This document shows positions 518-60,203 of a stretch of 64,000 nucleotides of DNA, piece by piece. Origin of the DNA: Scenedesmus sp. PABB004. Lineage: Eukaryota. The position numbers were made by a program, and so were the translations under genes. The notes under the pieces are model-generated. The model saw only the letters and a program-made list of their open reading frames with translations. It was not told the origin of the DNA and made no database searches. The stretch is from contig JABVCE010000010.1 in assembly GCA_014905635.1 (NCBI GenBank), positions 496,001 to 560,000 of the forward strand. Reading direction: 5' to 3'. Position 1 is the stretch's first letter. Each line of letters begins with the position of its first letter.

Positions 518-3500
518 TCAAAAAAACTTGGACAGCGTCGTCTTGGCGCCCGCGCGCCCGCTCGCGCGCAGGTCCTCGTTCGTGTTGCGCAGGAGCCAGC
601 TGAACTCGGCGTAGTCAATGAGGCCGTCGCCGTTGGTGTCGGCGGCCTCGAGCAGGGCCTTGGCGTCGTCGTAGATGCCAAAGCGACGCAGCGCGTCGCT
701 CAGCTCCTCGCTCGTGATCGTGCCGCTGCCGTCGCGGTCGAGCTGCTTGAACGCCTGCGCGGCGGGGCAGGGCGGGCGGGCGGGGCAGACGCGGGGGGGG
801 GGGTGCGTGTGAGTGAGTGTGCGTGCCGTGTCGGGTGGTGTGCTGCGGGGGGTGGGAGCGGAGAGCGGGGCCGGCGCGCCGCCTCCCACACAGAGCGCGC
901 CGCGCAGCGCCGGCCGCGCCTCGCCTTTTGCAGCAGCTCCTCCTTCTCCAGCTTGCTGAGGTGCATCGTCGCGGCGACAAACTCGTTGTAGTCGATCAGG
1001 CCGTCCCCGTCGACGTCCGCGATCGCCATCACGCTCTGCAGCTCAACCTGCGGCGCGGCGTGTGTGCGCGGAGCGGGCGGCAGGTGCGGCGGCGGGGTGG
1101 GCGGCGTGGGCGCGGCGGCGCAGCGCCCCCCCCCCCCCCCCCCCCCCCCGCGGCGCGGCGTGTGGCGTGTGGCGGCGGCGCGCGTGCTTACGTCGCTGAT
1201 TTTGTGGCCCCAGTTGAGCAGCGCGCGCTTCATCTCCTCGACCGTGATGGTGCCGCTGCCGTCGGTGTCGATCGACTTGAACAGCGCCTGCATGCCTGCG
1301 CGCCGCGCCGCGCCGCGCCGCGGGCGGGGGCGGGGCGGGGGGCGGGGGCGCGGCGGCGGCGGGCGTGGGTGCCGCGCGGCGCGCGTGCCCTGCGCCGCCC
1401 CGCCGCCCCGCCCGACACACGCGCCCGCACCCACGCCACACCCACGCACCTGTGAGCTCGTCGGGCGAGAGGTTTTGGCCGACGACCATCATGGCCATCT
1501 TTTTGAGCCGCGTCATCCCCGCAAACGCGCGCATGCGGCGCAGCACGACGCTGTCCATCTCGGTGCCCGGCGCGGCGCCCTCCTTGACCAGCCAGTCGTG
1601 GCGCAGGATCTGGCAGGGCGCGGCGGGGCGTGTGCGCGTGGGGCGTGCGTGCGTGTGAGTGTGCGCGAGGGCGGGCGGGCGGGCGCGCGAGAGGCGAGGG
1701 GGTGCCGTGCAGCGGCGCGCGGCGGCGGTGCGGCGCGCCTGCTCCGCGGTCGCGCGCTTGGTGGGGTCCATCTCCAGCAGCCGCCGCACGCAGTCCTTGG
1801 CCGCGTCGCTGATGGAGGGCCACGGCTCGCTCTTGAAGTCGATCGCGCCCTTCAGCACCTGGCCGCGCGCGGGCACGGCGCGCGAGCGGCGTGCGCGCGT
1901 GGGCGCCGCCCCCGCGCGCCACACGCCCGTCGGCAGGCCCCCCGCGCCGCGCCGCGCGCCGCCCCTGCCCGCGGCGCCGGGGCCCGCCCTCGCGCGCGAT
2001 GAAACCAGCCAGCCTCCGGGTTTACGGAGTCGAGGCGCGCGCGCGTGCGTGCGCGCGCGTGCGTGCCTAAACTGCCGCCGCGTCTGCGTGTGCGTGTGCG
2101 TGTGCGTGTGCGTGTGTGCGTCTGCGTGCGCGCGTGCGCCGCGCCGCACCATCTTGAAGATCTGGTCCTCCGTGTCGCCCCAGAAGGGCGGCAGCCCCGA
2201 GAGCAGGATGTAGAGGATGACGCCGAGGGACCACATGTCCGCCTCGTGGCTGTAGCTCTTGCGCAGCACCTGGGCGCGGCGGCGCGGCGCGCGGGCGCGC
2301 GGGGCGCGCGGGGCGGGACGGGACGGCAGGCGGGCGGGCGCGCGTCGGCCGGCGGACCGCGGGCGGGCGGCGGGCGCGGGCCCGGTGCCGCGGTGTGTGT
2401 GTGCGCGTGCGTGCTGCGCGTGCTGCGCGCACCTCCGGGGCGACGTAGTAGGGCGAGCCCACGAGGTCCCGGAAGCGCTCGCCGTGCCGGAAGAACACGC
2501 CTGCGCGCGCGCGCGCGCGCGTCGGCGCCCGCGCGCCCGCGCGCGCCGGCGCCCCGCTGCGCCCCGCTGCGCCCGCGCGCGCCCCGCTGCGCCCGCGCTG
2601 CGCGCGCTGCTGCGGGCGCGGCGCCACCGCGTGCGCGTGCCGCGCCGCACCGAGGCCAAAGTCTGTGAGCTTGAGCTCCGCGTCGAGGCTCTTGGCGGTC
2701 AGCAAGAAGTTCTCGGGCTTCAGGTCCCTGCAGGAGGGGGCGCGGCGCGGCACCGGCGCGGCGCGCGTGAAGAGCCGGGACGCGCCGACCGGCGCGCGCC
2801 GCGGCTGCGCGCGCTGGGTGCGCTGCGGCGCGCCCTGCCCCGCCGTCGCCCCGGGCCCCTGCCTCGCTCCCTGCCTCGCTCCCTCCCCGCTCGTGCGCAT
2901 GGCTGGCCGCGCCTGTGCATGACTCCGAGCTCGTGGCAGTGGTTGACGACCTCGACCATCTTGCGGAAGATCACGGCCGCCTGGGCGGCGGCGGGGGGAG
3001 CGGCGGCGGCGCAGTCGGCCCGCGCGCCCGCCGCGCCGCGCCCGCGCGCCCCTGCTGCCGGCGTGCGCCGCGGCGCGCACAGGCCGCGCGCAGGCTGCGC
3101 ACCTTTCTCTCCGAAAAGTGCTGCGCCTCGACGATGTGGTCAAACAGCTCCCCGCCGCCGCAGAGCTCCATGACAATGTGCACATACTCCTTGTCCTCGT
3201 GCGTGCTCTGCACGGTGGGCGCGGGCACGGCGGCGCGCGTGTGGCGGCGGCACAGCGCGCGGCGGCGGCGGCGCGGCTCGCGCCGCGGCGCCGCGCCTCG
3301 AGCGTGACGACGTTGGCGTGGCCGGCGACCAGGTTCATGATCGCGACCTCGCCCTGCACGTCCTTGACGTCCTCCTTGCACACCAGCTTGGCCTTGCTGA
3401 TCGACTTGACCGCGACGGGCTCGGACGTGGCCTTCCTGCGCGCGAGGCGCACGACGCCAAACGCGCCCTTCCCGATCTGCTTGTCGAGCTCAAACAGCTC

Positions 3501-3572
3501 GTCCAGCCGCGGGTCGGCGGGGCCCTTGCCCAGGACGTTGGCCACGGAGAAGGAGGACGACGGCGGCGGCAT
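518..3572 (-). CDS. CPK: calcium-dependent protein kinase (CDPK), 11 exons; alternative in-frame ATG at 3764
   Basis: Spliced motifs [57 protein letters not shown] and [21 protein letters not shown]. These are followed by a junction domain and four EF hands ([44 protein letters not shown]). Confidence 0.95.
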
Positions 3573-11153: not shown

Positions 11154-14100
11154 TCAGGCCTCGCCGCGAGGCGTCCCGCGCGCGAGCGCCCGCCCCCGGG
11201 CGAGGCGCCCTCGGCAAACCTGAACACCAGCTCGCCGTCCTTTCCGGCGCTCACCGACACGTCGTCGCCGGCGCCGGCGCCGGCGCCGCCGCCGTCGCCA
11301 CCGCCCTCGCCCCCGGCAACGAGCGTGCTCGCCGCAGGCGGGCCGCGCGGGGCGCCGCCGCCGGCCTGTGCGCCGGCCGCCGGCGCCGGCGACGCCGCGC
11401 CGGAGCGCATCCGGGACTCCATGGCCGCCAGCTTGGCCTCCATCTTCACATACTCCTCACGCAGGCGCCGCTGGCGACGGCGACGGCGGCGCACGCGGGC
11501 GCGGGCAGGGCTCAGCGCGCGGCGCGGCGCGGGCGGCGAGGCGGCGCGGGCGCCGCGGCGCGCGCGGGCGGCGCGGGCGCCGCGGGCGCCGCGGCGCACC
11601 TGCTCCCAGCGCAGCAGCTGCAGCTGCGCGAGGTCCTCCGGGTTCAGCGCCGCCTCCTCGCTCGCGCTCAGCCCCAGCAGCGCGCCGTCGTCGAGGACGC
11701 GCCCGCCCGCCGGCTCGGCGGCAGCGCCGCCGCCGCCGAGCACGCCCAGCGCCTGGCCCGGCGCGGGGCTGGCCGCGCGGCGCGCGCCCGCACTGCCGCC
11801 GTCGGGCCCAACAAACGCGTCCATGCTCGCCCCCGCGCCGGCCGCCGCCTGGGCCATGGCCGCGCTGAACAGCGCCTCGCGCCGCTCATCGGCCAGCGCC
11901 TGGTAGCGGCTGTCGCCCCAGAGCTGGCGCGCGGCGGCGGCGGCGGCGGCGACGCGGCGGCGGTCGGGCGCAGCGGGCGCGGCGCATCGCGGCACGCGCG
12001 GCGGGCGGGCGCGGCGGGCGCGGCGGGCGCGGCGGGCGCGGCGGGCGCGGCGGGCGCGGCGGGCGCGGCGGGCGGCGCGCACCTCGGGCTTTGCGGCGAC
12101 CCAGGTGCTGCCCGGCGCGATGCTGCCGGCGGTGAGCGACTCGTCCAGCAGCAGGCGGAAGTCTGACTCGGCCTTCTCAGCCGCGGCCTGGCACGCGCGC
12201 TCCAGCACGACCTGCGCGGGACGGCGCGTGCGCGCCCGTCGGCGCCCAGCCAGGTGCGCCCAGCCAGCGGCGCCGCCCGCCGGGCGCCGCGCGCGCAGAG
12301 CGGTCGGGCGGGCGGGGCGGGGCGGGGCGGGGCCGCACCTCGCGCACGCGCGTGTCGAACAGCTCCGCTCGCCGGTCGGGCGGGACGTCGTTGCCGGCGG
12401 GGTGTGCTGCCAGCAGCGGCGCGATTTCGCCCCACTCGCTCTCGGGGCCGACGTTCAGCCGCGCCAGCAGCTCCAGCAGCTGCGCCTCGGCCTTGGCCAG
12501 CCGCTCCGCGGCGACCTGGCGGCGGCGGCGGCAGGCGGCAGCGCGGGTCAGGGGCGCGGCGGCGCGCGGCGGCGCGCGGACCCCGCGCCCCCGGGCGCCG
12601 GCCGCGCCGCAGGCCCCCACCGTGCGCAGCGCCTCCTGGTACGCCTCAAACAGCTCCCGCCGCCGCGGCTCCTCCGGGACCACCTGCCGCGGGCGCGCGC
12701 GTGCGGCAGGCGCGGTCGGGCGCGCCCCGCGCGCGGGGCGCCGCGCCGCCGCCGCGCCGCCCGCGCTCGCCCACGCTCGCCCGGTCTCGCCCGCACCTGC
12801 CAGGCGTCGTCGCCCTGCAGCGCGCGCTCCACGTCCTCGTACGGCGTCTCCTCGTCGATCGCCACGCGCATCGTCGCGAGCGCGGCCGCGACCGTGCCGC
12901 TGCTCGCCGCGCCGGGCGCGCCCGACAGGGCGGGCGGCGTGTTGCGGCGCAGGAGGGCCAGGAACGCGGCGTCGGCGGCGCGCCGCGCGCGCTTCACGGC
13001 TGCCTCCTCCTCCATCTCCTGCGGCGGCGGGGCGCGGGGTGTGAGCCGGCGGCGCCGCCTGCCGGCAGCGCCAGCGCCCCCGCCCGCGCGCGCCCGTGCG
13101 CAAACGCACCCGCAGCATCCGCCCGGCGTCGTCCTTGACGCTCGTGACCACGTCGGACGCGATGCGAACGGCGAGGCTGCTGAACTTCAGCCCCGCGTAC
13201 GCCGCCGCCGACAGCACGCCGCCGCCCGCCGCGCCGGCCGCGCCGCCCGCGCCGCCCATGCGCGCGAGCAGCGCCGCCGCCTGCTCCTTGGCGCGCGTGT
13301 AGCTGCTCTGGGCGGCCTCGAGCTGGCTCGACATCTCCCCGAGCGTCGCCTGCGCGCGCTCGAGCTCCGCCGGCGCGGCCTTGCCCGCCTCAACCCGCGC
13401 CTTGAGGCGCGCGACGTTGGCCTGCTGCTTCTCCGTGCGGCTGCGCTGCTCGCTCAGGCGGCCCTCCAGGAACGTGAGCTGCTGCCCAAGCGCCTCCCAC
13501 GCCTGCGCGAGCACGCCGCCGCCCGCGGGCTCGGCCGGCGCCGCCGCCGGCGGCGGCGGCGCGGCGCCGCCGCTGCCCCCGCGCCGCCGCCCGCCGCTGC
13601 CGGGCTTGGCGGGCGCCGGCGGCTGCTCCACCGGCGCCGCGTCGGCGCGGCGGCTGCGGCCGATGCCCAGGAACCCCAGCAGGCTGCTGGCGCGCTGCGC
13701 GGTCTGCGTCTTTTCGGCTTCCAGCGTGTCGAGCTGCCGCTGCATCTGACCGAGCCGCTGCTTCTCCGCCGCCAGCACCGCCGCGTCGGCCTGGCCCTTG
13801 GCGACCTGCGCGGCGCGGCGAGCGGCGGCGTCGGCGGGCGCCGCTGGCCCCCCTCCCAGAGCGCGCGGCGCGGTGCGGCGCGGCGCGGCGGCGCGCCGGC
13901 GAGGCCCGCCGCAGGGCGCAGCAGCGCCGAGGGCGCGCCTTGTCCTGCAGCTTCTTGACCTTCCCCGTCTGCTTGGCCGTGTCGCTCGCTGTCTTGATCA
14001 TCCGCGCCTCGAGGTCAAACAGCCGGTCCTGCAGCCCCCGCCACATGCCCGCGGCGGCGCTGAACAGGCTGTTGCCCCGCGGCGCCGCCGGCGCCTCGGC

Positions 14101-15220
14101 CTCGGCCGCGCCCGCGTCGGCGCGGCCGCGCGCGCCGCGGCCGCTGCCCGCCTTGGCCGCGGGCGCCGGCGGCGGCGGCGCCGCCTTGCCGCTGCCCGCC
14201 GGCGACTTGCCGCCGCCCGCCACCGCCGCCGCGGCCTTGGCCTTGCCGCCGCTGCCGCCCCACCAGCCGCTGCGGGTGTCGCTGCCGCTGCCGCTGCCGC
14301 TGGCGGGCTCGTCCGACTCGTCGGCCGTGGCGAGGCTGCCGAGGCTGGCCATGCTGCCGAGCGCGGCGCGCCGCGCGGCGCGCTCGTGCTCCGCCGCGGG
14401 GCGCAGGAAGGGGTGCCGCAGCGCCTCCTGCGCCCCGATGCGCTGGAAGCCGCCGCGCCCCGCCACAAACGCGACGCCGCCGTCGTCGTCGACCGTGATG
14501 CTCCGCGGCCGCAGCAGCGCCTGCGCGAGCGCCCAGCCCGCGCCGCCGTCGGCGTCCAGCACCGCCGTGTCGCGCTTGCTGAGCCACCTGCGCGCGCGAC
14601 GCGGCGGCCACGGCTCGGCGCGGGCGGCTCGGCGTCGCGACCGCGCGTCGCCACTGCCACCGCGCGCCGCCCCGCCGCCCGTGCGCCGCCCGCCCCGCCG
14701 CTGCCCACGCGCCGCCCCGCTGCCTGCCGCGGCGCCGCGCGCCTGCAGCTCGAGCGCCAGGCGTCAATGTCGTAGTCGGCGCGCTCATACTCTGTTTTGA
14801 ACAGGTTGAGCCCCCGCGGGCTGCGCAGCGGCGGCAGGCAGAGCTGCAGCAGCACGATGCCCGCGGACCACGAGTCGAAGCGGTCGGGCTTGTGCTGCGC
14901 CCACAGCACCGGCGAGAGCGCGAGCGCAAACGCGCTCTTGGCGAGGTGCGGCGAGTCGGTCGGCAGCACGTACTGCGCGGCGGCGGGCGCGGAGGCGGGC
15001 GACGCGCGGCGCCGTCAGCGGGGCCCTGTGGGCGCCGACCCGCCGCGCCGCCCGCAGCTGCGCCGCGGCCCCTCGCTGCTGCGCCCGCCGCCCACGCCGC
15101 CGCCGCTGCGCCCGCCGCTGCCGTGCCTGCTCTGGCGGGCAGTAGAGCGGGTCGAGGATGCTCTCCTCGGGGCTGTGGACGCGGCGGGGCGGCGCGGCGC
15201 GGGCGGCGCGTCAACACGGC

Positions 15221-15252
<32 letters not shown>

Positions 15253-16628
15253 TGCCAGCGCGGCAGGGCCCGCCCCGCGCTGCGGCGCCGCGGCGCGCGC
15301 CTGTAGTTGGTCCCCGTGCGCAGGTCTGCGGCGGCGCCGAGGTCGATCAGCTTGAGTCGCCCGTCGCGCTCGCTGGCGATGACGTTGAGCGGCTTGACGT
15401 CGCGGTGCACCAGGCCTGGCGCCGGCAGGGAGGAGGAGGAGGGGCGGGGCGGGGAGGAGGGGGGCGGCGAGGAGGCGGGCGTGTGGGGGCGTGCGCAGGG
15501 CGCGGCGGGGCGAGGGCGCGCAGCAGCGGCGGCGGCGGCGGCGGCGGCGCAGGCGCGCACCCGCGGCGTGCAGCGCGGAGAGGCCGAGCAGCAGCTGCCG
15601 CATCGCGACCGGGACGACGATGTCCTCGGGCACGCCCAGGTCGCGCGCGAGCGCGCGCAGCGTGTCGCGGCGGCGCATGTAGTAGGCGAGGGTGTTGGAG
15701 CCCTCGTAGCGCCACATCTGAGCGCGGGGCAGAGGGGGAGGGGGCGGGGCAGCACGCGCGTTTGGCGCACAAGCGCGGCCGCCGGCCGCCGCCGCTGCCG
15801 CCGCTGCTGCTCCGCTGTGGCTGCCCGCGCGCGCCGCCGCAGGCGCCGCCGCCGGCGCCGCGCGCGCACCAGCCAGAGGCCCTCCGTGAGCCGCGCGTTG
15901 GCGTGCGCGGGCGGGACGTCGCAGAAGCCCACAAACTCGGCGATGCTGCCCTTGGCCGCCTTGCTCGCGTACACGTTCATGAGGTGCTCCATCTGCGCCA
16001 TCTCAGCCGCGCCCTGGTGCGTGGCGTCGCGGCGTCGCGGCGGCGTCGGCGGCGCGCCACGGCGGCGCGGGCGGCGGGGCGGGGCGCGCGCCGCTGCGCC
16101 TCATGCCGCCAGGCCCCGCACCTCCACGCGCGCCTTGACGCGCTTCAGCACCACGCGCTCCGGCTCGCCGCGCCCCGTGTCGAGCAGGCCCTGGGGCCAG
16201 CAGGAGGGGCGGCGCCGGCGGTTGGCGCGGCCGCGCCGCGCCCCGGCGGCGTGCGCGCTGCGCTGCGCTGCCGCTGCCGCCCCGGCTGGTGCGGAACCCG
16301 GGCGCCGGGCGCCGCGGCCGCCGGCGCGCGCGGGCTGCGCCGCGCCTGCTGCCGCAGGCACAGCGGCGCTGCTCGCTGCCTTTGGAGGCACGCGCACCTC
16401 GAACACCTGGCCGAACGAGCCCTCTCCCAGCGTCTTCTTCACGGTAATCATGTTCGGGGCCAGCGCCTGGCCCCGCGCGACGAGCCGCGCGGCGACCGCG
16501 AGTGCCGTACGGCGCGGCGCGGCCGGCCGCCGCCGCGCTGCGACCGGGCGCGCCAGGCCCGCCCGACGCGCTCCAGGGCAGCGCGCCTGGGCCATGGCCG
16601 GACGCATGGCGCCTGGTCGAAGGAGCAT
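11154..16628 (-). CDS. STT7/STN7/STN8-family Ser/Thr kinase with C-terminal coiled coil and FF-like repeats, 15 exons; stop uncertain (11154 if a frameshift is assumed, otherwise 10664)
   Basis: Motifs [78 protein letters not shown]...[11 protein letters not shown] and EALRHPF. The N-terminus is transit-like. Confidence 0.88.
11999..12075. repeat. (GCGGCGGGC)n intronic minisatellite
   Basis: About 8 tandem 9-mers inside a kinase intron. Confidence 0.8.
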
Positions 16629-20058: not shown

Positions 20059-20101
<43 letters not shown>

Positions 20102-33064: not shown

Positions 33065-34667
33065 ATGCAGGCCCGCGCGCACGCCGCGCCGCGCGCGCGT
33101 CCGCAGCAGCAGCGGGCGCTGCTGCCGGTCGGCCGCCGCTGTCCATCTGCGGGCCGCCGGCTGATGGCGTCTGCTGGACCCAGCGACGTGTTCGTGCTTG
33201 ACTTCGACGGCGTGCTCGTCGACAGCGAGCCTGAGGCGCGAGCAGCGCGGGTCGCTCGCTCAAGCGGGCGGCGCCGCACCGCGCGACGGCGGCGGCGGCG
33301 CGGCCGCTCACCCTCCCCCCTCCCTCCGGCGGGGCGCAGGTGTCGGCGAGCGCGCTCGCGGCGGCGCGCGAGCGCTGGCCCGAGGCCTTTGCTGGCCTGG
33401 GCGAAGACGGCGCGGCGGCGGTGCGCGCGGGCCTGCGCGACACGCGTCCGGTGCTGGTCCGGGGGTATGAGAGTATGGTCATGGTGCGTGCCAGGGGCCT
33501 GAGCGCAGGCTGGCCGGGGGCCCGGCCCAGGGCCGGCGGCGGCGCGGGCCAGCGCGACCGCGCGCCCCGCGCGCCCGCCGCCCGGCCCGGCCGCGCCGAC
33601 GCGCAGGCGCGCCTGCTGCGAGAGGAGGGCGGCAGCCAGCGCTGCGTGGATGCGATCCTGGCTGACTGGCCGCCGCTGCTGGAGGCGACGCTGGCGCGCT
33701 GGGGCGAGGACTGGCAGGCGCTGCAGGCCGCGTTTGAGGCGCACCGAGCCGCCTGGCTCGCCTCGGACCGCGCCGGCTGGCTGCAACGCAACCAGCCCTA
33801 CCCGGGTGCGGGAGCGGCGCGCAGCGCCCGCGGCAGCGCCAGGGGGGAGCGCGCCGGCCGCCGCGCCGCGCTGCACGATGCCGCGTGGCGCCCCGCAGGA
33901 ATGGTGGATGCGCTGAGCACCTGCGATTATCCTCTCTACTTTGCGAGCAGCAAGGCCGCGCACCGCGTGGCAACGCTCTTGGCCGCCCATTTTGGCCTGG
34001 CCGACGTCACGCCCGACTCGCCGCGCCTCTTCGCGTCGCTGCTGCCGCCGGAGGAGCAAAAGGCGGCGGCGCTGCGGTGCGCGCGGGGGTGCGCGGGCGC
34101 GCTTGCGGCGGCGCAGCTGGCCGGGCGGGCAGTGCGTCCCGGGCCCGACGCCAGCAGCCCCCCCCCACCCTCACATGCGCGCGCGCGCGCCGATGCCGCA
34201 GGACCATCGGCGCGCGGCCGGTGTGCGCGGGCGGCGCGCGCAAGCACTTTGTGGACGACCGGCTCGACACGCTGCGCGCGGTCCAGCGCGCGGGCGGGCT
34301 GGACGACTGGCAGCTCTACCTCGCAGACTGGTGCGCAACGCCGCAGGCCGCGCGGCAGCTGCAGCTGGCCGGTCGCCGCACGGCAGCTGCAGCTGGCCGG
34401 TCGCCGCAGGGCGGCGCGCGGCCCGCCGCGACCGGCCGCGCTCTGGGCCGCCCGCGTCGCTGCGCCCGGCGGCGCCACGGCCGCCGCCGCCCGGCGCGCA
34501 GGGGCTACAACACGGCGGCCGAGCGCGCTGCGGCCGCGGCGGCGCCGGGCATCCGCCTGCTGTCGCGGCCGGCCTTCCTCGAGCTGCTCAAGTGGGGCGT
34601 CGTGATGGGCGTCGACGACGGCTGCGAGCCCACGCCCGAGGAGGTGGCGGCGGGCGTGGACGGCTGA
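33065..34667 (+). CDS. HAD-superfamily hydrolase, probably plastid-targeted, 6 exons
   Basis: Motif I VLDFDGVLVDS, RPVLVRGYE, FASSK, HFVDDRLDTL and LYLADWGYNT. Confidence 0.88.
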
Positions 34668-37848: not shown

Positions 37849-38986
37849 ATGCGCGCCCTGAAGGCCGCAGCGCTCGCGCTGCTCCTCGGCGTCGCCTGCG
37901 TGGCGGCCCAGGGCAACAGCGCGAACGCGCCGGGCCACAACAAGCCCGCGGCCGCGCCCGGCTTCGGCGGCAGCGGCTCCTCCGGCGGCAGCTTCGGCGG
38001 CAGCGGCTCGTCCGGCGGCTCCGGCGGCAGCTTCGGCGGCAGCGGCTCCTCCGGCGGCTCCGGCGGCAGCTTCGGCGGCAGCGGCTCCTCCGGCGGCTCC
38101 GGCGGCAGCTTCGGCGGCTCCGGCAGCTCCGGCTCCACGCTCAAGGCGCTGCAGGTGGGTGCCGCTGGCGCCGCGGCGGGTGACGCCCTCGCGCCCGCTC
38201 GCGCCCTCGCGGCCGCTTGCTCGCGCCCGCTCACGCCGTCACCCCTGCTGCCGCCGCGCCGTGCGCCGCGCGCAGATGTGCAACATCATGACGCCGAAGC
38301 AGGGCGTGGTCTTCTCCGCCGACGGCGACATCCCCTGCAATGGCGCGGCGGCCTGCCGCGTGTGCGGGGCGAGCATCGCCGACGTGCGCGCCGCGTGCGC
38401 GCGCACGTCGCGCTGCGTCGGCTGGACCTGGCAGCCGTCGGCGCGCTGCGGCGTGCTCAAGGCCCACACCAGCCTCGACAAGCCCCTCCTGCCCCAGCGC
38501 GACTACGTCAGCTATGCGGCCGGGAACTACTTCACCGGCACCGGCACCGGCGGCGCCCAGAACGTCGGCACCGCGTCCGTCGAGCAGGCGCGCCCGCCCG
38601 CCCGCGCGCCGCGCCCCGCGCGCCGCGCCCCGCGCTGCGCGTTTTTCCCCCCGCCGCGGCCGCGGCGCGCGCCGCACACGCCCTCTCCCCCGGCGCCGCA
38701 CACGCCCCGGCGCCGCACACGCACCCGCCGCGTTGTCGCCGCCGTCGCGCAGATGTGCGTGACGCTGACGCCCATCCTCGACCGCATCGCGATCGGCAAG
38801 GACCTGCGCTGCGGCGGCGCGGAGAACTGCATGGTCTGCGGCGGCCCCGAGGCGGTGCGCGACGCGTGCGCCAACCGCGCCGCGTGCATCGGCTTCTCCT
38901 ACGACACTGCCACGCGCTGCGGGTACCTGAAGAAGGACGTCAGCAACGCGCAGACGCGCGCCGGGTGGGCGATCTTCGCGCGCTGA
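37849..38986 (+). CDS. secreted protein with Gly/Ser repeat and two PAN/Apple-like domains, 3 exons
   Basis: Signal peptide, then two modules, RAACARTSRCVGWTW..RCGVLK and RDACANRAACIGFSY..RCGYLK. Confidence 0.8.
37960..38135 (+). repeat. 39-bp coding repeat (SGGSFGGSGSSGG, about 4-5 copies)
   Basis: Repeated ggcggcagcttcggcggcagcggctcctccggcggctcc. Confidence 0.9.
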
Positions 38987-41783: not shown

Positions 41784-41850
<67 letters not shown>

Positions 41851-44501
41851 TGCCGCTGCCGTCCGCGCCCGCGCCCTGCGCTCGACACGCCGCGTTGCGC
41901 CGCGCCGCGCCGCGCCGCGCCGGCCCCCAGGCGGGGAGTCCATCTACGGCGGCCCGTTCAAGGATGAGTTCCACAGCCGCCTGCGCTTTGCGCACCGCGG
42001 CCTCGTCGCGTGCGCCAACGCCAACGCGCCGCACACCAACGGCTCCCAGTTCTTCATCACACTCGACAAGTGAGCAGCAGCGGCGCACCCAGTGGCGGGC
42101 CGCGTGCACGCGCCCCGGCGGGCTGCGCTGCGCCGCCCGCGTCCACGCCGCCGCCCGCGCCGCCCGCGCCGCCGCCGCGCCACACAACAAGGACGGAGTG
42201 GCTCGACCGCAAGAACACCATCTTTGGCAAGATCGTCGGCGACACCGTGTACAACATGCTGCGACTCAACGAGCTCGAGGCGCGGCTGCGTGCGGCGCTG
42301 CGGGGCCCGCGGCGCCGCGCGCGCCAAGCGCGCCTGAGGCGCGCTTGGCGCGCCAGAGGGCCGCGCGCCGCCGCGGGCGCGCGCCGCCGACCGCCGCCGC
42401 GCGCGCGCGTGCGCGTGTGGGCGCAGGTCGATGAGGCGACCGACCGCCCGGCCGACCCTCCGGTCATAACGTCGGTGGAGGTGCTGTGGAACCCCTTTGA
42501 GGACATCGTGCCGCGCACCACGCCCGCGGAGCGCAAGGCGCAGGCGCAGTTCAAGTGCGGCCGCGGGCGCGCGCTCGGGCGCGCGGGGCGCGCCGCGCCG
42601 AGCGCCCGCCGCGCCGCGCCGCGCCGGCGCGCCGCCCCCGCAGGAAGGCGGAGGAGGTGCGCAAGGTGCGCAAGTCGCAGAAGCGCAACCTCGCGCTGCT
42701 GTCGTTCGGGGAGCAGGCGGAGGAGGATGAGGCCGACCTGGCGCGCGCGGCGGCCGCCACCGGCGGCGCCAAGATCCGGTGCGCGCGCCAGCAGCCAGCA
42801 GCAGCGCGCGCGCGGGGCCCCACGCGCGCGCGGGGCGGCCCCCGCGTGGCTGCCGGCCGGCGGCGCCGCGCCGGCGCCGAGGCTGCGCGCCGCGCGCTGC
42901 CCCGGCCGCGCGCCAGGTCGGCGCACGAGGTGCTGCGGGGTGACGCGAAGCTGCTGGCGCCGGAGGAGACGCGCCCGAGGTGCTGGCGGAGCGCGAGCGC
43001 CGCGCGGCGGCGGTGGCCAACGTGCAGAGCAAGCTGCAGGGCGCCGCGGCGGGCGGCAAGCGCGGCCGCGGCGACAGCAGCGGCAGCGACAGCGACAGCA
43101 GCGACGACGACGGCGAGCGCGGCGGCAAGCGCAGCAAGACCGCCGCCAACCGCAGCGGCGCCGCCGCGCTGGTGGCGGAGCGCGTGCGCGCGGCCACGGA
43201 GCGGGCGGAGAAGGCCGGCGGCGCGCGCGAGGCGCGCGAGGCCGAAGCAGCGGCGGCGGCGGCGGCCGCGGCCGCGCCGAGGGCGGCAAGGCCAAGCAGC
43301 GCGCGCGCAGCCGCAGCCGCAGCCGCAGCAGGAGCGGGAGCAGAGGCCGCGGCGGCGCGGCGGCGCAGGCGGCGGCGGCGGCGGCGACGAGCAGCAGCAG
43401 AAGCCTGGCAGCAAGGAGGATGAGCTGTATCAGCTCAAGGATAAGTCGGGCGCCGGCAGGTGGGCCCCCACGGCCGCGCGTGGCAGCGCGCGGCAGCAGC
43501 CCGCATGCTGGCGACCGCCCCGCGCCCACCACGCGCGCCCGTGTCCGCCGCCGCCCGCCGCGCCGCCAGGCTCCGCGTGGACGGCAGCGTCCCGGACGGC
43601 GAGCTGCTGAAGGCCTTTGAGCTGAGCCGGGCCAAGTACAAGACGCGCAAGCAGCAGGCGCGGCCGCGGCGGCGCCCGCGCGCCGCGCGCCGCGCCCGGG
43701 CCGCCCGCGCCGGCGCGCCGACGCCGCCGCGGGCCGCGCGCCGCCGCGCCGCGCGCCGCCGCGCCGCAGGTCGGCGGGCGGCAGAAGGACACGCTGTCCC
43801 GCCTCGCCGCCTTCACCAGCAAGCTGCGCGCGAGCCAGCAGGAGCAGCAGCATCAGCAGAGGCAGAGGCAGCAGCAGCAGCACGAGCAGGACGCGGCGGC
43901 GGCGGCGGCAGACGCCGGGGCGGACGCGGCCAAGCAGCAGGGCGCCGCGGCCGCCGCCGCCGCCGCCGACGGCGAGCAGGAGGCATACGACGGCAAGGTG
44001 CGCCGGCGGCCTCCTGAGCGCGCCGCACCGCCCACCCGCCCGCCGCTCACGCACGGGGCCCGCGCGTCGCGGCGCGCGCCGCCGCCGGCGCCGCACCCAG
44101 GTGCGGCGCGACATCGACCACCGCACCTACATGCCCGCCGCGTGGCGCGCCGACGACTACCTGGCGGGCGGCAGCGACGACGACGACGACCTCGACAGCC
44201 TGCGCAAGCACAAGTGCGGCGCGCCGCGCGCCGCCGCGGGGGCGCCGCGGGGCGCGCGCGGCCGTGCCGCCGCCGCCGCCCACGCGCGCCCGTCCGCCGC
44301 CGCCGCCCCCCCCCCCCCCCCCGCCGCCGCCGCGCAGGCTGGAGTTCAGCCGCGCGCCCGGCGACGCGATGGCGCGGCGGGACGAACTGGACGACTATGT
44401 CGTGTTTGACCCGCTGCTGGAGGAGAAGAAGGGCAAGTTCAGCCGCGCGGCGCAAAAGGAGAAGAAAGACGACCGGCTGGGCGGGCCGCGCGCACGGCTG
44501 A
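41356..44501 (+). CDS. CWC27: spliceosomal cyclophilin CWC27/CYP57, 12 exons
   Basis: [76 protein letters not shown] and DDYVVFDPL. Frameshifts near 42975 and 44466. Confidence 0.93.
41784..41850. repeat. (GCG)n intronic trinucleotide repeat
   Basis: About 22 copies directly after a splice donor. Confidence 0.85.
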
Positions 44502-44643: not shown

Positions 44644-47465
44644 TCACGCCTTGGACGCGCGGCCGACTTGTGGCTCGTCGGCAGCAGCGACTCGGCCGCC
44701 TCGCCCGCGCCGGCCTTGAGCTGGCCGTAGTACAGTAGCGCCGTGGCCAGCGCGCTCGCAATGAAGAGGCCGTTGAACCACCTGGGGTTTAGGGTTAGTG
44801 GGGGAGAGGCGACGGCGGGGCGCGGGGCGCCGCGGTCGAGCGCGCGGCGCGGACGCGCAGCGACCGGCCTCCAAGAACGCCGCCGCCCGCGCTGGCGGGG
44901 AGGAGCCCGCGCTCGCCCCGGCGGCGCCGCCGGCCGCACCGGTGGAAGTACTGAAACTCGAGCTCGCCGCCGCCGAGCACGGCGTCGATGGCGGCGCGGT
45001 GCGCGACGGGGACGTTGCGCCGGATGAGCAGCAGGCTGCTGATCGCGTACACGCCCGTGAGCTCGCTCAGCACGAGCACGAGGCTCGCGCCGCCGCCGCC
45101 GCGCGGCGCCGCGGCGTGCGAGCGCGCGCCGCCGCCGCCGCGCCGAGCCAGCCGCGCACGCTCGTGAGCGTGGCAAACACGCGCGCCGCGTTTTTGAGGA
45201 ACGCGCGGATGGAGAGTGCTGAGATGGTGCCGACAAAGAGCAGCGTCACGTACTGGCTCAGCAGCGCGGGGTCCAGCACCAGCCGGTCGTGGCTCAGCCG
45301 GCGCAGCACAAAGCCGAGCCACCTGGGGTTGACAAAGGCCGCGGGCACCGCGGCGGCGGTGGCGGCGGCGGCGGCGCCCGTCGGCGGCGGGCTCGGCGGC
45401 GGCGCGAGGGAGCGCCGGGCGCGCCGGGAGCGGGACGCCGCAGCGCGCCGCGCGCGCCGCGGCGCGCCGCGCCTGCTGACGGGGTCGCTGCTGAAGTCCT
45501 CGCCCACGGCGAGGGCCTTGGCGCTCGCGGCGACGCGGTAGAGGCAGTACGCTGACGTGGCGTAGCCGAGCGCGTTGCGCAGGTGCCCCGACAGCGAGCG
45601 GCTCGCGACCGCGCGCGCATGGTGGGCCTTGAGCTCCAGCAGCTCCACCAGCAGCGCCTGGCGCGGGGAAGAGGGGGGGGGCGAGGAAGGGCGTGAGGGG
45701 CAGGGAGGGAGGGAGGGAGGGAGGGGAGGGGTGGGGAGGGTGAGCAAGACGAGGGCGCGCGTCGGAGGGGGCGAGGGAGGCGAGCGATCGGCGGCGGCGG
45801 CGGCGGCAGCGGCGGCGGCGGCGGGACGCAGGCCGCGCCCTGCGCCAGCGTCTCCCACGTCGCGAGCTCCGCGTTGAGTGCGCGCAGCGTCTCGCGCGGC
45901 GAGCCGGGCGCGCTGCCGCCCGACCACGCGCCCACGAAGCTGCGCAGGCTGCCGAACAGCCCGCTGCTGCGCGCGGCGGCGCGGCGGCGGTGGGGCGGGG
46001 CCGGCGCTGGCGTGGCCGCCGCGGGCCGCGTGGCGCGCGCGCGCGCGCGCAGGGCCCACCGCTGCGCCCCGGCGTTCGGCTGGTGGCCGCGACCTCCTGG
46101 CTGATGAGCAGGATGCGCTTTTTCTTCTCGGCGCACACCTCCAGCGCCTGCCCGGGGCGCGGCACAGGGGCGCGGCGCGGCGCGGCGTCGGCCGCACGCG
46201 AGCTGCGCACACGCGGTGACGCACGCTGAGCACAAGCCACACACGTTCACTCAACACCAGCGCACACAGCGCGCGCCGCCGCGCACAGCGCGCCCCAGCG
46301 CGCAGCGCGCCCCCCCCCCCCCCCACACACACAGCGCGCGCCGCAGCGCGCAGCGCGCGTCGCCGCGCGCCGCGCGCCGCGCGCGCGCCCTGTCGATACT
46401 GCTGCTCCATGCCAGCGACCTCGCCCGCCTCCACGGGGCGGATGAAGAGGCTCAGGTAGCTGTAGGGGAAGTCGACGCTGGCATAGCCGCTCAGCAGGCT
46501 GATCACCCAGGTCCCCACCACGCCCAGCCGCGCGACCGCCTGCGTGCGTGTGTGTGCGTGTGTGTGTGTGTGTGGGGGGGGGGTGCGTGTGCGGTCGTGT
46601 GTGGGTGGCGGGCGCAGCGGCGAGGCGCGCGGCGTGCGGCGCGCGGCGCGCGGGCCTGGCCGACGGAGAGCGCGCTGCCGCCGAGGCCGAGGCCGCGGCC
46701 GAGGCGCCAGAAGGCGTAGAGGAAGGCGGCGTAGGCGGCCGCCGACAGCGGCAGCGCGCGCGCCGCCCAGAACGGGCCTGCGGCGCGCGGCGCAGCAGCA
46801 GCAGCAGCAGCAGCAGGGGTTTGGGCGCGTGGGAGAGAGGCAAGCGACCCCGCAGCGGGCCCCCGCGCGCAGAGCAGGGGGGGCGGAGGAGGAGCAGCAG
46901 GGCCCTCCCGCCCGGCGCTCACCGCTGGCGGTGAGTGTGCGGTATGCGTGATACCAGGGCAGCACGCACACGAGCAGCAGCACGAGCGCCCACACCGTCA
47001 GCCGCCAGTCCCACAGCCGCAGGCTGCGGCGCGGCGCGCGGCGGGCGGCGCGGCGGGCGGCGTCGTTGCGCCGCGTCCGCGTCCGCCGCTGCCGGCGAGC
47101 TCCGTGGTGCCGCCGCCGCGCGCACCTGGCGTCGAGGATGCCCAGGATTTCAAACACCACCAGCAGCAGCAGGTTGCAGGAGCACGCAAACGTGCTCGAC
47201 CAGAGCACCTTGCGCGGCGCGGCACGGCACAGGGCAGGTGCGCGCCGCGCGCTGCGCCGCCGCTGTCGCCGCGGAGCGCCCGCGCCCGCCCGCCGCGCCG
47301 CGCCGCGTCCGCCGCGCCGCGCGCCCGCCGCGCGGCGCCGCGCACCAGCACGCCCGTCTCGCGGTCGTCAAACGCCTGCAGCAGCGAGCTGCTCACGAAC
47401 AGCCAGCCGCCGGCGAAGCAGGCCGCCAGGCAGCCCAGCGCGAGCACCCAGTCGAGCGCCGCCAT
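44644..47465 (-). CDS. GTG: GPCR-type G protein / Golgi pH regulator (GTG/GPR89 family), 10 exons; exact stop uncertain
   Basis: Motifs FACSCNLLLLVVFEILGIL, QAVARLGVVGTWVISLLSGYASVDFPYSYLSLFIRPV, CAEKKKRI, SQYVTLLFVG, LSELTGVYAISSLLLIR and LEFQYFHRWFNGLFIASAL. Confidence 0.93.
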
Positions 47466-53531: not shown

Positions 53532-53571
<40 letters not shown>

Positions 53572-54199: not shown

Positions 54200-54542
54200 G
54201 TGGGAGGCGAGGGGCTGCGCTGCGGCGGCTGCCGGGCGCGGAGGCTTCCAGGCGCGCGCGGCTGCGTGCGGTCGCTGCGGTCGAGCTGCGGGGTGGCCAG
54301 GGGTGTGGGGCGCTCGTGCGGCGGGTGACCGGGCGAGCGGAGTGGGCGGGCGGCGGGGGGCGCCAAGCGAGGGCTCGAGGGGGGGGGGGGGATTTTGGGG
54401 GCCGAGCCCCGAGCCCTCAGTTTGCAAATGCGCGAGGCGCCCCCGCCTCCCGCCCAGATCGCGCGCCCGTCCGCGCAGCACCTCCCACGTGCCCGCCCGG
54501 CCGCCCGCGACGCGCGAGGAGGCGCCGAGAGGCTCCGCAATC

Positions 54543-55784: not shown

Positions 55785-55817
<33 letters not shown>

Positions 55818-56891
55818 GCCGCACCACGCCACGCGCGCCGCCCACGCGCGCGCGCACCTGGTGCCGCCGCCGCCGCGTCGCCGCAGGCGGTGTGGGCGCT
55901 GGGCAACATTGCGGGCGACTCGCCGCACTGCCGCGACCTCGTGCTCAACGCGGGCGCGCTGCCGCCGCTGCTGGAGCAGCTCAAGGAGGGCAGCAAGGTC
56001 TCCATGCTCCGCAACGCGACCTGGACGCTCTCCAACTTCTGCCGCGGCAAGCCGCCGCCCAACTTCAGCGTGGTGCGCCCCGCCCGCGCGCTGCGCGCGG
56101 GGCGTGCCAGCGCCGCGCCGCGCGCGGGGCGTGCCAGCGCCGCGCCGCGCGTCGCAGCACGCGCCGGCCGGCCCACCCGCGCGCGCCGCCCCGCCCCCTC
56201 CCGTCCCGCGCGCGCGCTGCAGACGCGCAACGCGCTGCCGACGCTCGCGCGGCTGATCCATGCGGGCGACGAGGAGGTGCTGACGGACGCGTGCTGGGCG
56301 CTGAGCTACCTGAGCGACGGCGACAACGACCGCATCGACAAGGTCATCGAGGCCGGCGTGTGCAGGCGCCTCGTGGAGCTGCTGCTGTGAGCGACGCGCC
56401 GCGCGTGGGAGGGCTGCGCGCGCGCAGGAGGGCCGCGCGCCGCGCCGCGAGCGCGCGTGGGAGGGGGCTGCTGCTGCGCGCGTGCGGCGTGCGGCGTGCG
56501 TGCGTGCGTGCGTGTTTTGGAGGGCGTCGGCGACGCGCGCGGCGCGGCGCATCGCGCTCACAGGCCGCCGCCGCCGGCGCCGGCGCGGCGCCGCGCGCGC
56601 GCGCGCAGGCACACGTCGCCCGCGGTGCTCGTGCCGGCGCTGCGCACGGTGGGCAACATCGTCACGGGCAACGACATGCAGACGCAGGTCGTCATCAACT
56701 GCGGCGCGCTCGGCTGCCTGCTCACGCTGCTCACGGCGGCGCACAAGAAGAGCATCAAGAAGGAGGCCTGCTGGACGATCAGCAACATCACCGCCGGCAC
56801 CAAGGAGCAGATTCAGTCGGTCATCGACGCAAACATACTGCCCCCGCTCGTCGCGCTGCTGCAGGCGCGCGGCTGCTGCTGCTGCTGCTGC

Positions 56892-56925
<34 letters not shown>

Positions 56926-57429
56926 CGCGCGGCGGCGCGGCGCGCGGCGCGCGGGCGCGGCGGCGCGCGCGCGCTCGCGCGCGCCGCGCCCACGCGCGAT
57001 GCGCCCGCCCCGCCCCGCCCCGCAGTCGGCGGAGTTTGACATCAAGAAGGAGGCCGCCTGGGCGATCAGCAACGCGACGAGCGGCGGCACCGCCGAGCAG
57101 GCGCGCGCCGCGCCCGCGCCGCGCCCGCGCGCGCCGCCCACCGTCCCTCTCCCTCGCTGCGCCCCCCTCCCGCGCCACACGCACACACACACTCTCTCTC
57201 CCCTGCCCTCCGTCCCCGTACCCCGGCGTCCCAACACTTCACCCCTAAACCCCTAACCCCCCTCCCCCCTACCCCCCCCCCCCCTCCCGCAGATCCGCTA
57301 CCTGGTCGAGGTCGGCGCGATCCGCCCGCTGTGCGACCTGCTCAGCGTGCCGGACGTGCGCATCGTCACCGTCGCGCTGGAGGGCCTCGAGAACATTCTC
57401 AAGGCGCGCACCACCAGCACCCGCCGCAC

Positions 57430-57467
<38 letters not shown>

Positions 57468-58184
57468 TCGCTGCCGCCACAGCGACCAGCGCGCCGCGCA
57501 GCGCGGCGCAGCGCCTCCTCCTCTCTGCCCCCACCCGCCCACGCCCACACCCACACCCACACACCCGCACACGCAGGTGGGCGAGACGATGAAGCGCATG
57601 CCCGGCGGCAGCGGGTCCAACCCCTTTGCGCAGCTGGTGGAGGACGCGGACGGCCTGGACAAAATCGAGGCCCTGCAGGCGCGCGGCGCAGGCGGCCGCG
57701 CGCGCCACGCGCGGCGCCTGGCCGCGCCGCCGCCGCCGCCGCTCGGGCGCGCGCGCGCCTTGCTTGCGGCTCCCTCCCTCTCGGCCCCTCCCTGCCCCCT
57801 TCCCCCCACACTCGCTCGCTCGCTCACTCGCGCTCACTCGCACTCACTCACTGGGTGCCCACACTCGCTCGCGCACCCACTCCCACCCACACACCCACCC
57901 ACACGCCCACACCCACAGGAGCACCAGAACGAGGACCTGTACGAGAAGGCTGTCTCCATACTGGAGGCCTACTTTGAGTGCGAGGAGGGGGACGACCAGA
58001 ACCTCGCGCCCGCGCTCGCGGGCAACACGTACGCGTTTGGCGCGCCGCCCGGCGCGGCGGGCGCGCCCGGCGGCGCCGCCGCGGCGCCCGGCAGCGGCGG
58101 CGGCTTCAACTTCAACGACGGCGCCGGCGGCGCCGCGCCGCCGGCGGGGCGTTCAACTTTCAGGGCTTTGGCGGGCCCAAGTGA
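54543..58184 (+). CDS. IMPA: importin subunit alpha, 10 exons
   Basis: IBB domain ([34 protein letters not shown]) and ARM repeats ([40 protein letters not shown]). The FG-rich tail needs a frameshift near 58147. Confidence 0.97.
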
Positions 58185-58880
58185 GCGCGGCCGCGGCCGC
58201 GGCGCCGGCGGCGGCGGCGCGCGCGGCCCGGCGCGCGCGCCCGGGCGCTCGGGCCTGGCGGCGGCGCAGATCTTCCTGTGAGGCGCCGCGCGCGGCGGGC
58301 GGGCCGCGGCGCGCAGTGCATGGATTGACGGCGGCGGCGCGGCGGCGGCGCAGCGGGCGCCGCCGCCGGCGCGCGCGCCGCCGGCGGGCGGGGCTCCTCC
58401 TGTCTTGTGAAGTGTACATGTGCGCGTTTTTTGGTGTCTGAGCGTGACCGCAGGCCGGGGTCCGCGCCTGCTGCGTGCATGTCCGTGCGTGCGAGTGTGC
58501 CGCGGGCGCGGGGTCCGCGCCTGCCGCGTGGCGTGTGATCGTGTGGCGTTCTTGTGAGCGTGCCGCGGGCGCGGGGTCTGCGCCCGCTGTTGTCGCGCGC
58601 GCGCGCGTGCCCTGGCATCGGTGTGCTGTGTCTGCGTCTGACCAGCGTGGCGCGCGGGCGGCGGTCGTCCGCGCCTCGCGCGCGCTCCCTAGGCCTAGGC
58701 GTCGGAGGCGTCCGAGCGGGCGGTAGCTAGCGGGCGGGCGGGGGCGGGCGTGCATCGGCGGCGAACAGGTTGGCAGCGGCGCACGCTGCAACATCAACAC
58801 AACACGAGCCCGCCGCGCCCGCCAGCGATCCTCCGCGCCCGCCGCGCCCGCCGCGATGCGCCGCGCCCACGAGGGTCAGC

Positions 58881-60203
58881 CTAGCGCTCCGAGCCCACGG
58901 TCGCCGCGCACGCGGGCCGCGCCTTCACCCTGCGGGGCGGCGCCGAGCGCGGCGCGGCGGCGCGTCGCGGCTCGCGCGCAATGCGGCGGCGGCGCTCGCG
59001 CGGCGCTCCGGACCCCGCACCGCTCCATGTACTTCAGCACGTTGGGGTAGGGCGAGAGGTCGAGCTGCGCGGCACGGCGGGCGCGGCGGGCGGCGGCGCG
59101 GCGGTGTCAGGAGGGGGCCTCGGCCGCGCACGGGAGGTGGAAAGCACGGCAGGTTCCCCGGGCCCGAACGGCCGCGCCCGCGCGCGGATTTCCCCGCACC
59201 TGCGGGAAGAACATCGGCACGTACAGCAGGATGCTGCCGACAGCGACATCGCTGACCGAAAAGGCGTTGCCCTCCAGGTACTCCCTGCGCGGCGCGCCGG
59301 CGGGCAGCGGGGCGCTCGCGCGCCGTGAGCCGTGAGCCGCGGCGGCAGCGCCGCGCCCGGGGCGCGCGCTGTGCGCTGCGGCCGGGTGGCCGGCGGCGGC
59401 GGCGCCAGGGAGCGGCGGCGCCGGTCGTGCCGCGCTGGCCACGCGGGCGCCGGCGGCCGCCCGCGGCGCCGCCGGGCGCAGCCGCACCCGCGCCCGCACC
59501 TGTCCGCCAGGAGCTTGTCGAGCGCGCCATACACGTCGGGCATCGACTTCTCCCTGAACTGCTCCACAAAGACCGCGTTGGAGAGCGTGGAGTTGGAGAA
59601 CGAGATCCACTGCGCGGCCTTGGCCCGCGCCTCGGGCGTGGGCAGCGCGCCGTGCTTGTCCGCGAGATAACTCAGCAGCGCGCCGCTCTCAAACAGAGTG
59701 AACTCGCCGTCCTGCAGCGCGGGGACCTTGCCAAACGGGTTGACCTGCGCGCGCGGGGCGGGGTATGCGCCGGCGCCGGCGTCGGCGCCGGCGTCGGCGT
59801 GGGCCGGCCCGTGCGGGCGCGGCGCGGCGGGGCGAGCGCCGCCGCGGGGCCGCCGGCGGCCGGCCAGCCTCAAGCCGCCGCGCCTTGAGGAAGGAGGGCT
59901 CCTTGTGCTGGCGCTTCTCGCGCATGTCCAGGTTGACCATCTCCACCTGGTCCTCGATGCCCAGCTCCTTGATGTACCTGCGCGCGCGCGTGAGGGGGCG
60001 CGCGCACGCTCGACGTGCGCCGAGCAGCGCCGCACGCGCAGCGGCGCCGGCACCCCCGCTCACCACGCTACGATCTGCCCGCGCGACGCGGGGTTGGTGT
60101 ACAGCTTCACCGCCGCGCGCACGGCCACGGCGGCGCGGCGCACGGGCCGCGCGGGCGCCGCCGCCGCGGGGGCAGCGCGGCGCGCGCCGAGCTTCGTCTG
60201 CAT
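58881..60203 (-). CDS. GST: plastid-targeted glutathione S-transferase, 6 exons
   Basis: Transit peptide ..VAVRA, then KLYTNPASRG, VNPFGKVPALQDG, LFESGALLSYLA, YLEGNAFSVSDV and YPNVLKYMERVKARPA. Confidence 0.93.

Follow-up and report, generated by a model that had tools for sequence, protein, structure and literature searches.

Do about one in five introns of the chlorophycean alga Scenedesmus sp. PABB004 begin with GC in place of GT, and, if so, has the recognition of the 5' splice site changed in this lineage? The question is raised by a 64,000-nucleotide (nt) stretch of contig JABVCE010000010.1 (assembly GCA_014905635.1, positions 496,001 to 560,000 of the forward strand), here called the window and numbered from its first letter, in which an original prediction had placed 23 GC donors in genes for conserved proteins. 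The abundance of GC-AG introns in the window is confirmed. The introns are most probably of the U2 type, having arisen by T-to-C drift at the second intron position (+2) and being kept only where the context of the donor compensates for the change.

GC donors in conserved genes

At all 23 positions exonic AG is followed by GC on the expected strand. Homology backs 16 of these sites, through 14 spliced alignments to related proteins, the continuity of one Pfam DnaJ domain and one structure of human CWC27, which bears out the claim that conserved proteins need GC donors; the other seven (33236, 35924, 36513, 36959, 38588, 43658 and 59883) rest on an ab initio parser. The predicted proportion of about one intron in five also held, the share in the window ranging from 19% (23/119; 23 clean AG/GC donors against 96 predicted GT donors, the slash marking here and below the exon-intron boundary) to 34% (50/146; every predicted GC donor). 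Within the four fully aligned genes, picked because they carried claimed sites, GC donors are present in 14 of the 37 robust introns.

The spliced alignments were made with a dynamic-programming protein-to-genome aligner allowing introns of phases 0-2, AG acceptors and any chosen set of donor dinucleotides, with homologues from protein searches as references. It replaced tblastn, whose high-scoring segment pairs ran on through introns. The reference for the CDPK gene, P0002, is a 484-residue homologue taken from Logan assemblies, with 86% identity to the query exon. At 14 junctions every boundary pair within ±40 nt, with any dinucleotides, was exhaustively enumerated. The 23 introns are as follows, paired scores being those of the GC-AG junction and of its GT-AG alternative:

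3208..3296, minus strand: CDPK intron 1, GAG/GCGCGG...CAG, phase 0; aligned to P0002; GC-AG 134 against 105 for the best GT-AG
2728..2912, minus strand: CDPK intron 3, CAG/GCGCGG, phase 2; its removal restores HRDLKPEN of the catalytic loop; 142 against 88
1610..1738, minus strand: CDPK intron 7, CAG/GCGCGC, phase 0; P0002 alignment; no in-frame GT-AG within ±40 nt
755..924, minus strand: CDPK intron 10, AAG/GCGAGG, phase 0; P0002 alignment and enumeration
15173..15300, minus strand: STN7-like kinase intron, CAG/GCGCGC, phase 2; alignment; no GT-AG alternative
14973..15126, minus strand: STN7-like kinase intron, CAG/GCACGG, phase 0; alignment; no GT-AG alternative
14588..14742, minus strand: STN7-like kinase intron, CAG/GCGCGC, phase 2; alignment; 138 against 108
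13806..13938, minus strand: STN7-like kinase intron, AAG/GCGCGC, phase 0; 82 against 47
25853..25999, minus strand: intron of a DnaJ-domain gene, CAG/GCGCGC, phase 2; Pfam continuity; predicted by the parser as an untrained site
33236..33339, plus strand: intron of a HAD-like gene, GAG/GCGCGA, phase 0; ab initio parser only
35924..36092, plus strand: class-3 lipase intron, CAG/GCGCGC, phase 0; parser; the next exon matches Lipase_3 positions 49-83
36513..36676, plus strand: class-3 lipase intron, CAG/GCGCGG, phase 0; ab initio parser only
36959..37104, plus strand: class-3 lipase intron, AAG/GCGCGC, phase 0; ab initio parser only
38588..38752, plus strand: intron of a Cys-rich gene (named PAN in the original prediction), CAG/GCGCGC, phase 0; ab initio parser only
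42280..42426, plus strand: CWC27 (cyclophilin) intron of 147 nt, GAG/GCGCGG, phase 0; human CWC27 structure; parser
43658..43769, plus strand: intron in the C-terminal region of CWC27, CAG/GCGCGG, phase 0; ab initio parser only
46540..46655, minus strand: intron of the GTG/GPHR gene (GPHR-family membrane protein), CAG/GCCCGC, phase 0; 102 against 77
45323..45472, minus strand: GTG/GPHR gene intron, CAG/GCGCGG, phase 2; four of five references; 114 against 94
56865..57025, plus strand: importin alpha intron, CAG/GCGCGC, phase 0; 132 against 102
57101..57292, plus strand: importin alpha intron, CAG/GCGCGC, phase 0; no GT-AG alternative
57404..57576, plus strand: importin alpha intron, AAG/GCGCGC, phase 0; 121 against 61
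57679..57918, plus strand: importin alpha intron, CAG/GCGCGC, phase 0; no GT-AG alternative
59745..59883, minus strand: GST gene intron, AAG/GCGCGG, phase 0; parser; acceptor side also pinned by structure

In the enumeration 12 of the 14 sites had their best mRNA junction exactly where it was claimed, while 3296 was beaten by 3 points and 45472 by 2, in both cases by boundaries that are not splice-like, such as TC-CG. Among the boundary pairs that yield the same mRNA, the GC-AG pair alone has an AG acceptor. The best GT-AG alternative is 20-60 points worse at nine of the junctions, and at the remaining five no in-frame one is present within ±40 nt.

Aligned to P0002, the CDPK gene has ten introns, four of them with GC donors (3296, 2912, 1738 and 924), and its score of 2027 with GT and GC donors compares with 1684 for GT donors only, a model in which the catalytic HRDLKPEN is destroyed. 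Its exon 1 (3297-3572, minus strand) is 100% identical to P0001, the CPK2 protein deposited for this strain, which agrees with the CDPK model through 483 residues and across all four GC introns; this is weak independent evidence, as the same deposited model then skips a stop at a junction that is neither GT nor GC. Past residue 483, within 259-529 (minus strand), P0001 (1117 residues) leaves out two final codons together with the TGA at 518-520 and resumes near 259 in a downstream gene; the implied donor being neither GT nor GC, two genes seem to have been fused in the public model. Inside CDPK introns there are also 24 consecutive C on the plus strand (1126-1149) and a microsatellite of TGCG/TGTG (2085-2110).

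The importin alpha gene, aligned to P0065 of Tetradesmus obliquus, has nine robust introns, of which four consecutive ones carry GC donors, the same four with five of five references; the scores are 2458 with GT and GC donors and 2067 with GT only. In the kinase gene donors 15300, 15126 and 14742 were all recovered with three of five references, P0184 giving only 14742, and P0185 giving 15300 and 15126. Donor 13938 was found with four of six longer references, exactly with P0186, P0188 and P0192, and with a different acceptor in P0191. This STN7-like kinase (11850-16540, minus strand) is over 1000 residues long and includes a region resembling coiled-coil and FF domains, like Raphidocelis P0186 (1162 residues); the kinase model P0178 of Scenedesmus NREL 46B-D3 ends at 553 residues.

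Donor 46655 of the GTG gene was recovered with two of five references (P0207 and P0232), the other three picking GC donors 6-15 nt away, and at 45472 the parser gave the same donor with the acceptor at 45392. Two further junctions of this gene, 46386-46389 and 45836-45839 (minus strand), are of a different kind: the homologue exon ends at CAG, implying a GG donor and an intron starting with GGCGCG, and the best model with a GC or GT donor, GGC/GCGCGC or GGC/GCGGCC, inserts one Gly missing from the homologues. Summed over four references, the first of them (46386-46389) scored 983 with GG, 941 with GGC/GC and 887 with GT; the second was seen in two alignments only.

Domain continuity and structures bear on several other sites. 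At 25999 the upstream exon ends at position 21 of the Pfam DnaJ domain, the split codon is position 22 and the downstream exon covers 23-63. At 42280, where the intron is open in frame, a read-through query matched residues 125-150 and 154-179 of solved human CWC27 (4r3e) on either side of 49 unmatched intron codons. At 59883 the first residue past the acceptor aligns to residue 46 of the solved 192-residue GST 7pka; the exon upstream gave no GST match among solved structures. In the HAD-like gene a GT-only parse takes GGC/GTGCTC at 33212, which lies 24 nt earlier within the open frame and would remove eight codons, VLVDSEPE. A Pfam scan of 14 short exons matched five: both DnaJ exons, one GST exon, one lipase exon, and a HAD exon by a chance hit to DUF3701. 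The nine exons for which Pfam gave no match were the second of HAD, the upstream one of GST, three of the lipase (including that upstream of 35924), both of GTG and both of CWC27. No Pfam family was found at E<=0.001 for the Cys-rich gene.

The parser combines a three-periodic second-order Markov model of coding frames with one donor matrix for GT, another for GC and a third matrix for acceptors, trained on 31 verified introns; 12 of the 23 claimed sites belonged to the training set and 11 were untrained. Introns were retained when both flanking exons scored at least 8 and the strand comparison was won. Before these filters, the first two versions strung the whole window together into giant genes, introns being cost-free and stop codons rare; stop-to-stop frames of at least 40 residues span about 122,600 of about 128,000 six-frame codons. 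In leave-one-gene-out cross-validation 29 of the 31 introns were recovered exactly. Over the window the parser yielded 146 introns, 96 with GT and 50 with GC donors, and all 23 claimed sites were among them, each with AG/GC and G at +5, and 22/23 with a CAG acceptor. Forbidding GC donors costs the parse 561 log-odds units (plus strand) and 479 (minus strand) and drives it to atypical donors within exons' coding sequence (e.g., GTCGCG, GTCAAG and GTCCGC), so that coding sequence is cut at all 11 untrained sites. The 27 additional GC predictions are doubtful: 21 lack AG, and six have it together with an atypical motif, acceptor or length. Several of the doubtful predictions have odd acceptors or are located opposite a better-scoring gene.

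Donor context, orthologous donors and base composition

The verified GC donors differ from the GT donors mainly on the exonic side. AG precedes 16 of the 16 verified GC donors, as predicted, and 11 of the 23 verified GT donors, for which it is thus not needed (Fisher p=3.7e-4); among the predicted GT donors it precedes 35 of 96 (p=7.5e-7 against the GC class). G occupies +5 in 16/16 verified GC donors and in 96% of the 23 verified GT donors. The commonest word from +1 to +5 is GCGCG in the former (13/16) and GTGCG in the latter (18/23); over all 23 claimed sites GCGCG is read in 20, in keeping with the claim that most GC donors have it, the exceptions being GCGAG (924), GCACG (15126) and GCCCG (46655). 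The pattern is that of U2-type introns, with G at +1 in 16/16 verified GC donors, at +3 in 14/16 and at +5 in 16/16. U12-type GC-AG donors read GCATCC (Sheth et al. 2006, PMC1557818), and the U12-like GCATC is found in none of the verified donors, whose words are GCGCG, GCGAG, GCACG and GCCCG.

It had been argued that AG/GCGCG pairs poorly with canonical U1 small nuclear RNA (snRNA) and that a variant U1 or U6 might therefore be present. The comparison within the window speaks against the premise: with CAG/GTAAGT as the canonical U1 target and G at +3 scored as half a match, GC donors match on average 5.25 of nine positions, GT donors 5.48, and GT donors without AG 5.04. The step to a variant U1 or U6 is likewise not supported, the GC class being the more informative one and needing AG in 16/16 cases. 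Measured from -3 to +8 against window composition, the 23 GC donors carry 10.1 bits and the 96 GT donors 8.1 bits, the rare A at -2 giving 2.98 bits and the rare T at +2 giving 3.17. The GC context is thus weak only against the vertebrate consensus, and it is as informative as the GT signal in this genome. AGGCGCG is present twice in the 5,025 nt of verified exons and once in the 4,738 nt that make up intron interiors, and 10 of 12 exonic AGGCGC copies lack G at +5.

The mismatch at +2 is compensated at other positions, as seen both in the AG counts (16/16 against 11/23) and in the information content (10.1 against 8.1 bits). C is present at +2 in 23 of the 58 donors in AG context (40%), while C/(C+T) in intron interiors is 0.86 (p=8e-16); either T is still favoured at +2 even in AG context, or equilibrium has not been reached. 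The introns of both classes have the same interior composition and similar proportions of CAG acceptors (26/29 for GC, 92/96 for GT). A family of introner-like introns was considered and rejected, the similarity among predicted introns being confined to low-complexity sequence or overlapping calls on opposite strands.

Orthologous donors in relatives were sought by a metagenome scan with P0002, which gave 26 loci, aligned with the same spliced aligner. At residue 91 of P0002 (phase 0), where the window has GAG/GC (3296), AAG/GT is found in all 11 loci with an intron there (L004, L005, L007, L013-L015, L018-L021 and L025; locus G+C 47-71%), several of which are near-duplicates. At residue 406 (phase 0), where the window has AAG/GCGAGG (924), all six loci with that intron have AG/GT: AAG/GTGAGG in L023 and CAG/GT in L008-L012. 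Within the hexamer from +1 to +6, L023 differs from the window at +2. The counterparts of the CDPK GC introns at residues 149 and 277 were not resolvable in the loci, nor was the L023 donor side at 277. L023:67-2650 (VFQR01017190.1), with 80% identity and 54% G+C, is the closest CDPK relative found; it shares with the window five full intron positions (P0002 residues 126, 174, 197, 330 and 406) and the acceptor at 277, lacks the intron at residue 237, and aligns poorly over residues 250-277.

The base composition of the window is extreme, with 77-82% G+C in every 4-kb bin. No dinucleotide is commoner than GC, which takes up 21.5% of positions, and GT accounts for 3.5%. The assembly comprises 39.8 Mb in 77 contigs with 7,092 genes, and its 78.5% G+C is the top value in the comparative table of PMC12571836. 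In verified exons codon position 3 has 95% G+C and position 2 has 43% (57% A+T), while verified introns have 87% G+C, 7% A and 6% T; the exons are thus the AT-richer compartment, and coding potential is easily scored because of this contrast between codon-position bias and GC-rich introns. Pfam matches on open frames placed the CDPK, a protein kinase, the DnaJ-domain gene, the GPHR/GTG gene and GST on the minus strand, and the class-3 lipase, the CWC27-type cyclophilin, importin alpha, a leucine carboxyl methyltransferase and a divergent ATP-synthase-alpha/beta-like gene on the plus strand. The last of these, a multi-exon gene at 49100-51900, has weak matches to ATP-synt_ab (29.3 bits) and ATP-synt_ab_C (22.7 bits), both below the curated cut-offs; it was dropped as an unbiased test gene, its sequence being too divergent. 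Its seven filter-passing introns, between 49775 and 51972, all have GT donors.

Origin of the GC donors

The alignments demonstrate GC-AG junctions, a rule of AG and G at +5, and GT at two orthologous donors in relatives of lower G+C; that the donors changed from GT to GC, what drove the change, that pairing with U1 is the constraint and that U1 is canonical are what we infer. The genome has about 78.5% G+C, T-to-C change is strongly favoured, and +2 is the only position in GT...AG where a transition is tolerated by the spliceosome. Exonic AG together with G at +1, +3 and +5 would leave enough pairing to the canonical U1 5' end after such a change; donors in this context would drift to GC, and donors without exonic AG would remain GT. 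In this composition the rare A at -2 assumes the informational role that belongs, in GT donors, to the rare T at +2. In the standard account of GC-AG introns the mismatch of C at +2 with U1 is tolerated through good pairing at other donor positions (PMC1557818); in this alga extreme GC pressure would have raised the frequency of such introns, and a variant-U1 mechanism is unnecessary for these data.

A lineage-specific shift in splice-site choice, in which a variant U1 5' end, the U6 ACAGAG box, U1C, Luc7 or Prp8 would read C like U at +2, is improbable. It draws support from a GC share exceeding that of most eukaryotes 10-30-fold (five model species have 0.37-0.87%, PMC1557818), from the only 532 GC-AG against 25,053 GT-AG introns of Chlamydomonas (PMC2846911, Table 2), from GCG at +3 to +5 in both donor classes, which is far from the consensus AAGT, and from Iwata and Gotoh, who left base modification or small nuclear ribonucleoprotein (snRNP) proteins open as causes (PMC3033335). 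Were it true, the share of 19-34% would reflect a changed rule and not tolerated drift, in the most GC-rich nuclear genome compared, and the two GTG junctions that favour CAG/GGCGCG at 46389 and 45839 might be explained as well. Machinery preferring C at +2 would, however, require no extra exonic pairing of GC donors, and all 16 have it; a need for exonic AG that GT donors do not share is what canonical U1 predicts, and is the opposite of what a C-preferring U1 would give. In addition, T at +2 in AG context is kept far above the neutral expectation, and two other algae rich in GC-AG introns have canonical U1 5' ends (PMC3033335). A search for snRNA genes with Rfam at the gathering threshold gave no matches in the window or in 17 related metagenome loci. 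Somewhat less probable still is that GC donors are maintained not just by mutation pressure but by selection, as weak sites through which alternative splicing or intron retention could be regulated. In human, nematode and Arabidopsis, alternatively spliced genes are enriched in GC donors, and the rise of such donors in mammals was attributed to selection of this kind (both PMC2490688); in Emiliania huxleyi 89% of the 535 introns inspected had reads running through them (PMC4028052). In the window there is no sign of it, since GC and GT introns are alike in interior composition and acceptors, and the GC donors cluster in ordinary housekeeping genes; the published algal share is tied to genome G+C, a correlation which its authors call weak outside the three most GC-rich species (PMC3033335).

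That the GC donors are artefacts, AG/GC being always findable near a true GT donor by hand or with permissive aligners, or the assembly containing T-to-C errors, is very unlikely. In its favour, GC is far more frequent than GT (21.5% of positions against 3.5%), the aligner invented spurious GC-AG introns in low-complexity tails, and any added donor dinucleotide raised the scores over GT alone. Against it stand the lack or the 20-60-point cost of GT-AG alternatives at the 14 enumerated junctions, the loss of HRDLKPEN and of 561 and 479 log-odds units in GT-only models, with their atypical GTC donors within coding sequence, and the agreement of the deposited P0001 across four GC introns; assembly errors restricted to +2 of AG-preceded donors would also be implausible.

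Drift at +2 in a compensating context remains the preferred reading, and several observations weigh against it. Every junction is deduced from protein homology or coding statistics, and seven of the 23 sites rest on a parser that had learned its matrix for GC donors from 12 of the claimed sites. The decoy control, in which GT+GC scored highest in four of four genes against CG, GG, CC, CT and TG added to GT, is not sharp: GT+CG lies only 29-37 points under GT+GC per gene. Because of this closeness whole-gene scores fix a junction only to within a few bases, and the argument at the level of junctions therefore rests on the boundary enumeration and the required AG acceptor. The AG rule may be partly circular, as both the original prediction and the parser favoured AG/GC, and it would be weaker if the 21 of 50 predicted GC donors without AG were real. 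Two GTG junctions fit CAG/GGCGCG better than any GC or GT donor. Finally, orthologous GT donors were found for two of the four CDPK GC introns and for no other gene.

Comparison with known systems

High proportions of GC donors were described earlier in other algae. According to Iwata and Gotoh (2011, PMC3033335), GC-AG introns account for 39.6% in Aureococcus anophagefferens, 22.2% in Micromonas pusilla and 7.7% in Chlorella sp., and the putative U1 genes of the first two have a 5' end identical to the consensus. In E. huxleyi 56-61% of donors are GC (PMC4028052), and in pelagophytes about 14-17%, for which GC content was blamed (2024 preprint, bioRxiv 10.1101/2024.10.30.620910); the authors on the other algae likewise attribute the high share to GC content. 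The phenomenon, as well as the negative U1 result in two other algae, was thus published in 2011, and no new question is opened by the window. No report of abundant GC-AG introns in this species or order was found in the literature, in a search that did not extend to supplements (Additional file 1 of PMC3033335 may list more algae), and the papers found on Scenedesmus sp. PABB004, judged by title or the start of the abstract, include none on splicing.

With these GC-rich algae PABB004 shares a high proportion of GC donors, canonical AG acceptors and very high G+C, and the signs linked to GC content are found in it: genome G+C above about 65%, and a share in the window of 19-34% against 1-2%. 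It differs from them in belonging to the chlorophycean order Sphaeropleales and in having an even higher G+C (78.5%). It adds the strict AG/GCGCG context and the GT ancestry at two donors, analyses of a kind not seen for the earlier algae in the available parts of those papers. The U2-type GC-AG introns of animals and plants have the same GC start and AG acceptor, compensation of +2 and frequent switching from GT to GC between species (PMC1557818). The share in the window is at least 20 times theirs (0.37-0.87%, PMC1557818), and compensation consists almost wholly of exonic AG and G at +5, positions +3 to +6 reading GCGC like the GT donors of this alga and not the consensus AAGT. Chlamydomonas reinhardtii belongs to the same algal class, and its GC-AG share, about 2.1% (PMC2846911, Table 2), is about a tenth of that in the window; U12 snRNAs and U12-type introns were not found in Chlamydomonas (PMC2846911), and its GC-AG introns are therefore of the U2 type.

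In practical terms, gene finders limited to GT would break a large share of PABB004 gene models, the four best-conserved genes of the window carrying two to four GC donors each. The rule that only AG-preceded donors convert while T is still favoured (40% C against 86% in neutral sequence) could be used to measure selection on +2. Within the known systems the window represents an extreme point on the published link between genome G+C and GC-AG share, and it is a new instance of that pattern, in Sphaeropleales and at the highest genome G+C among the sources compared.

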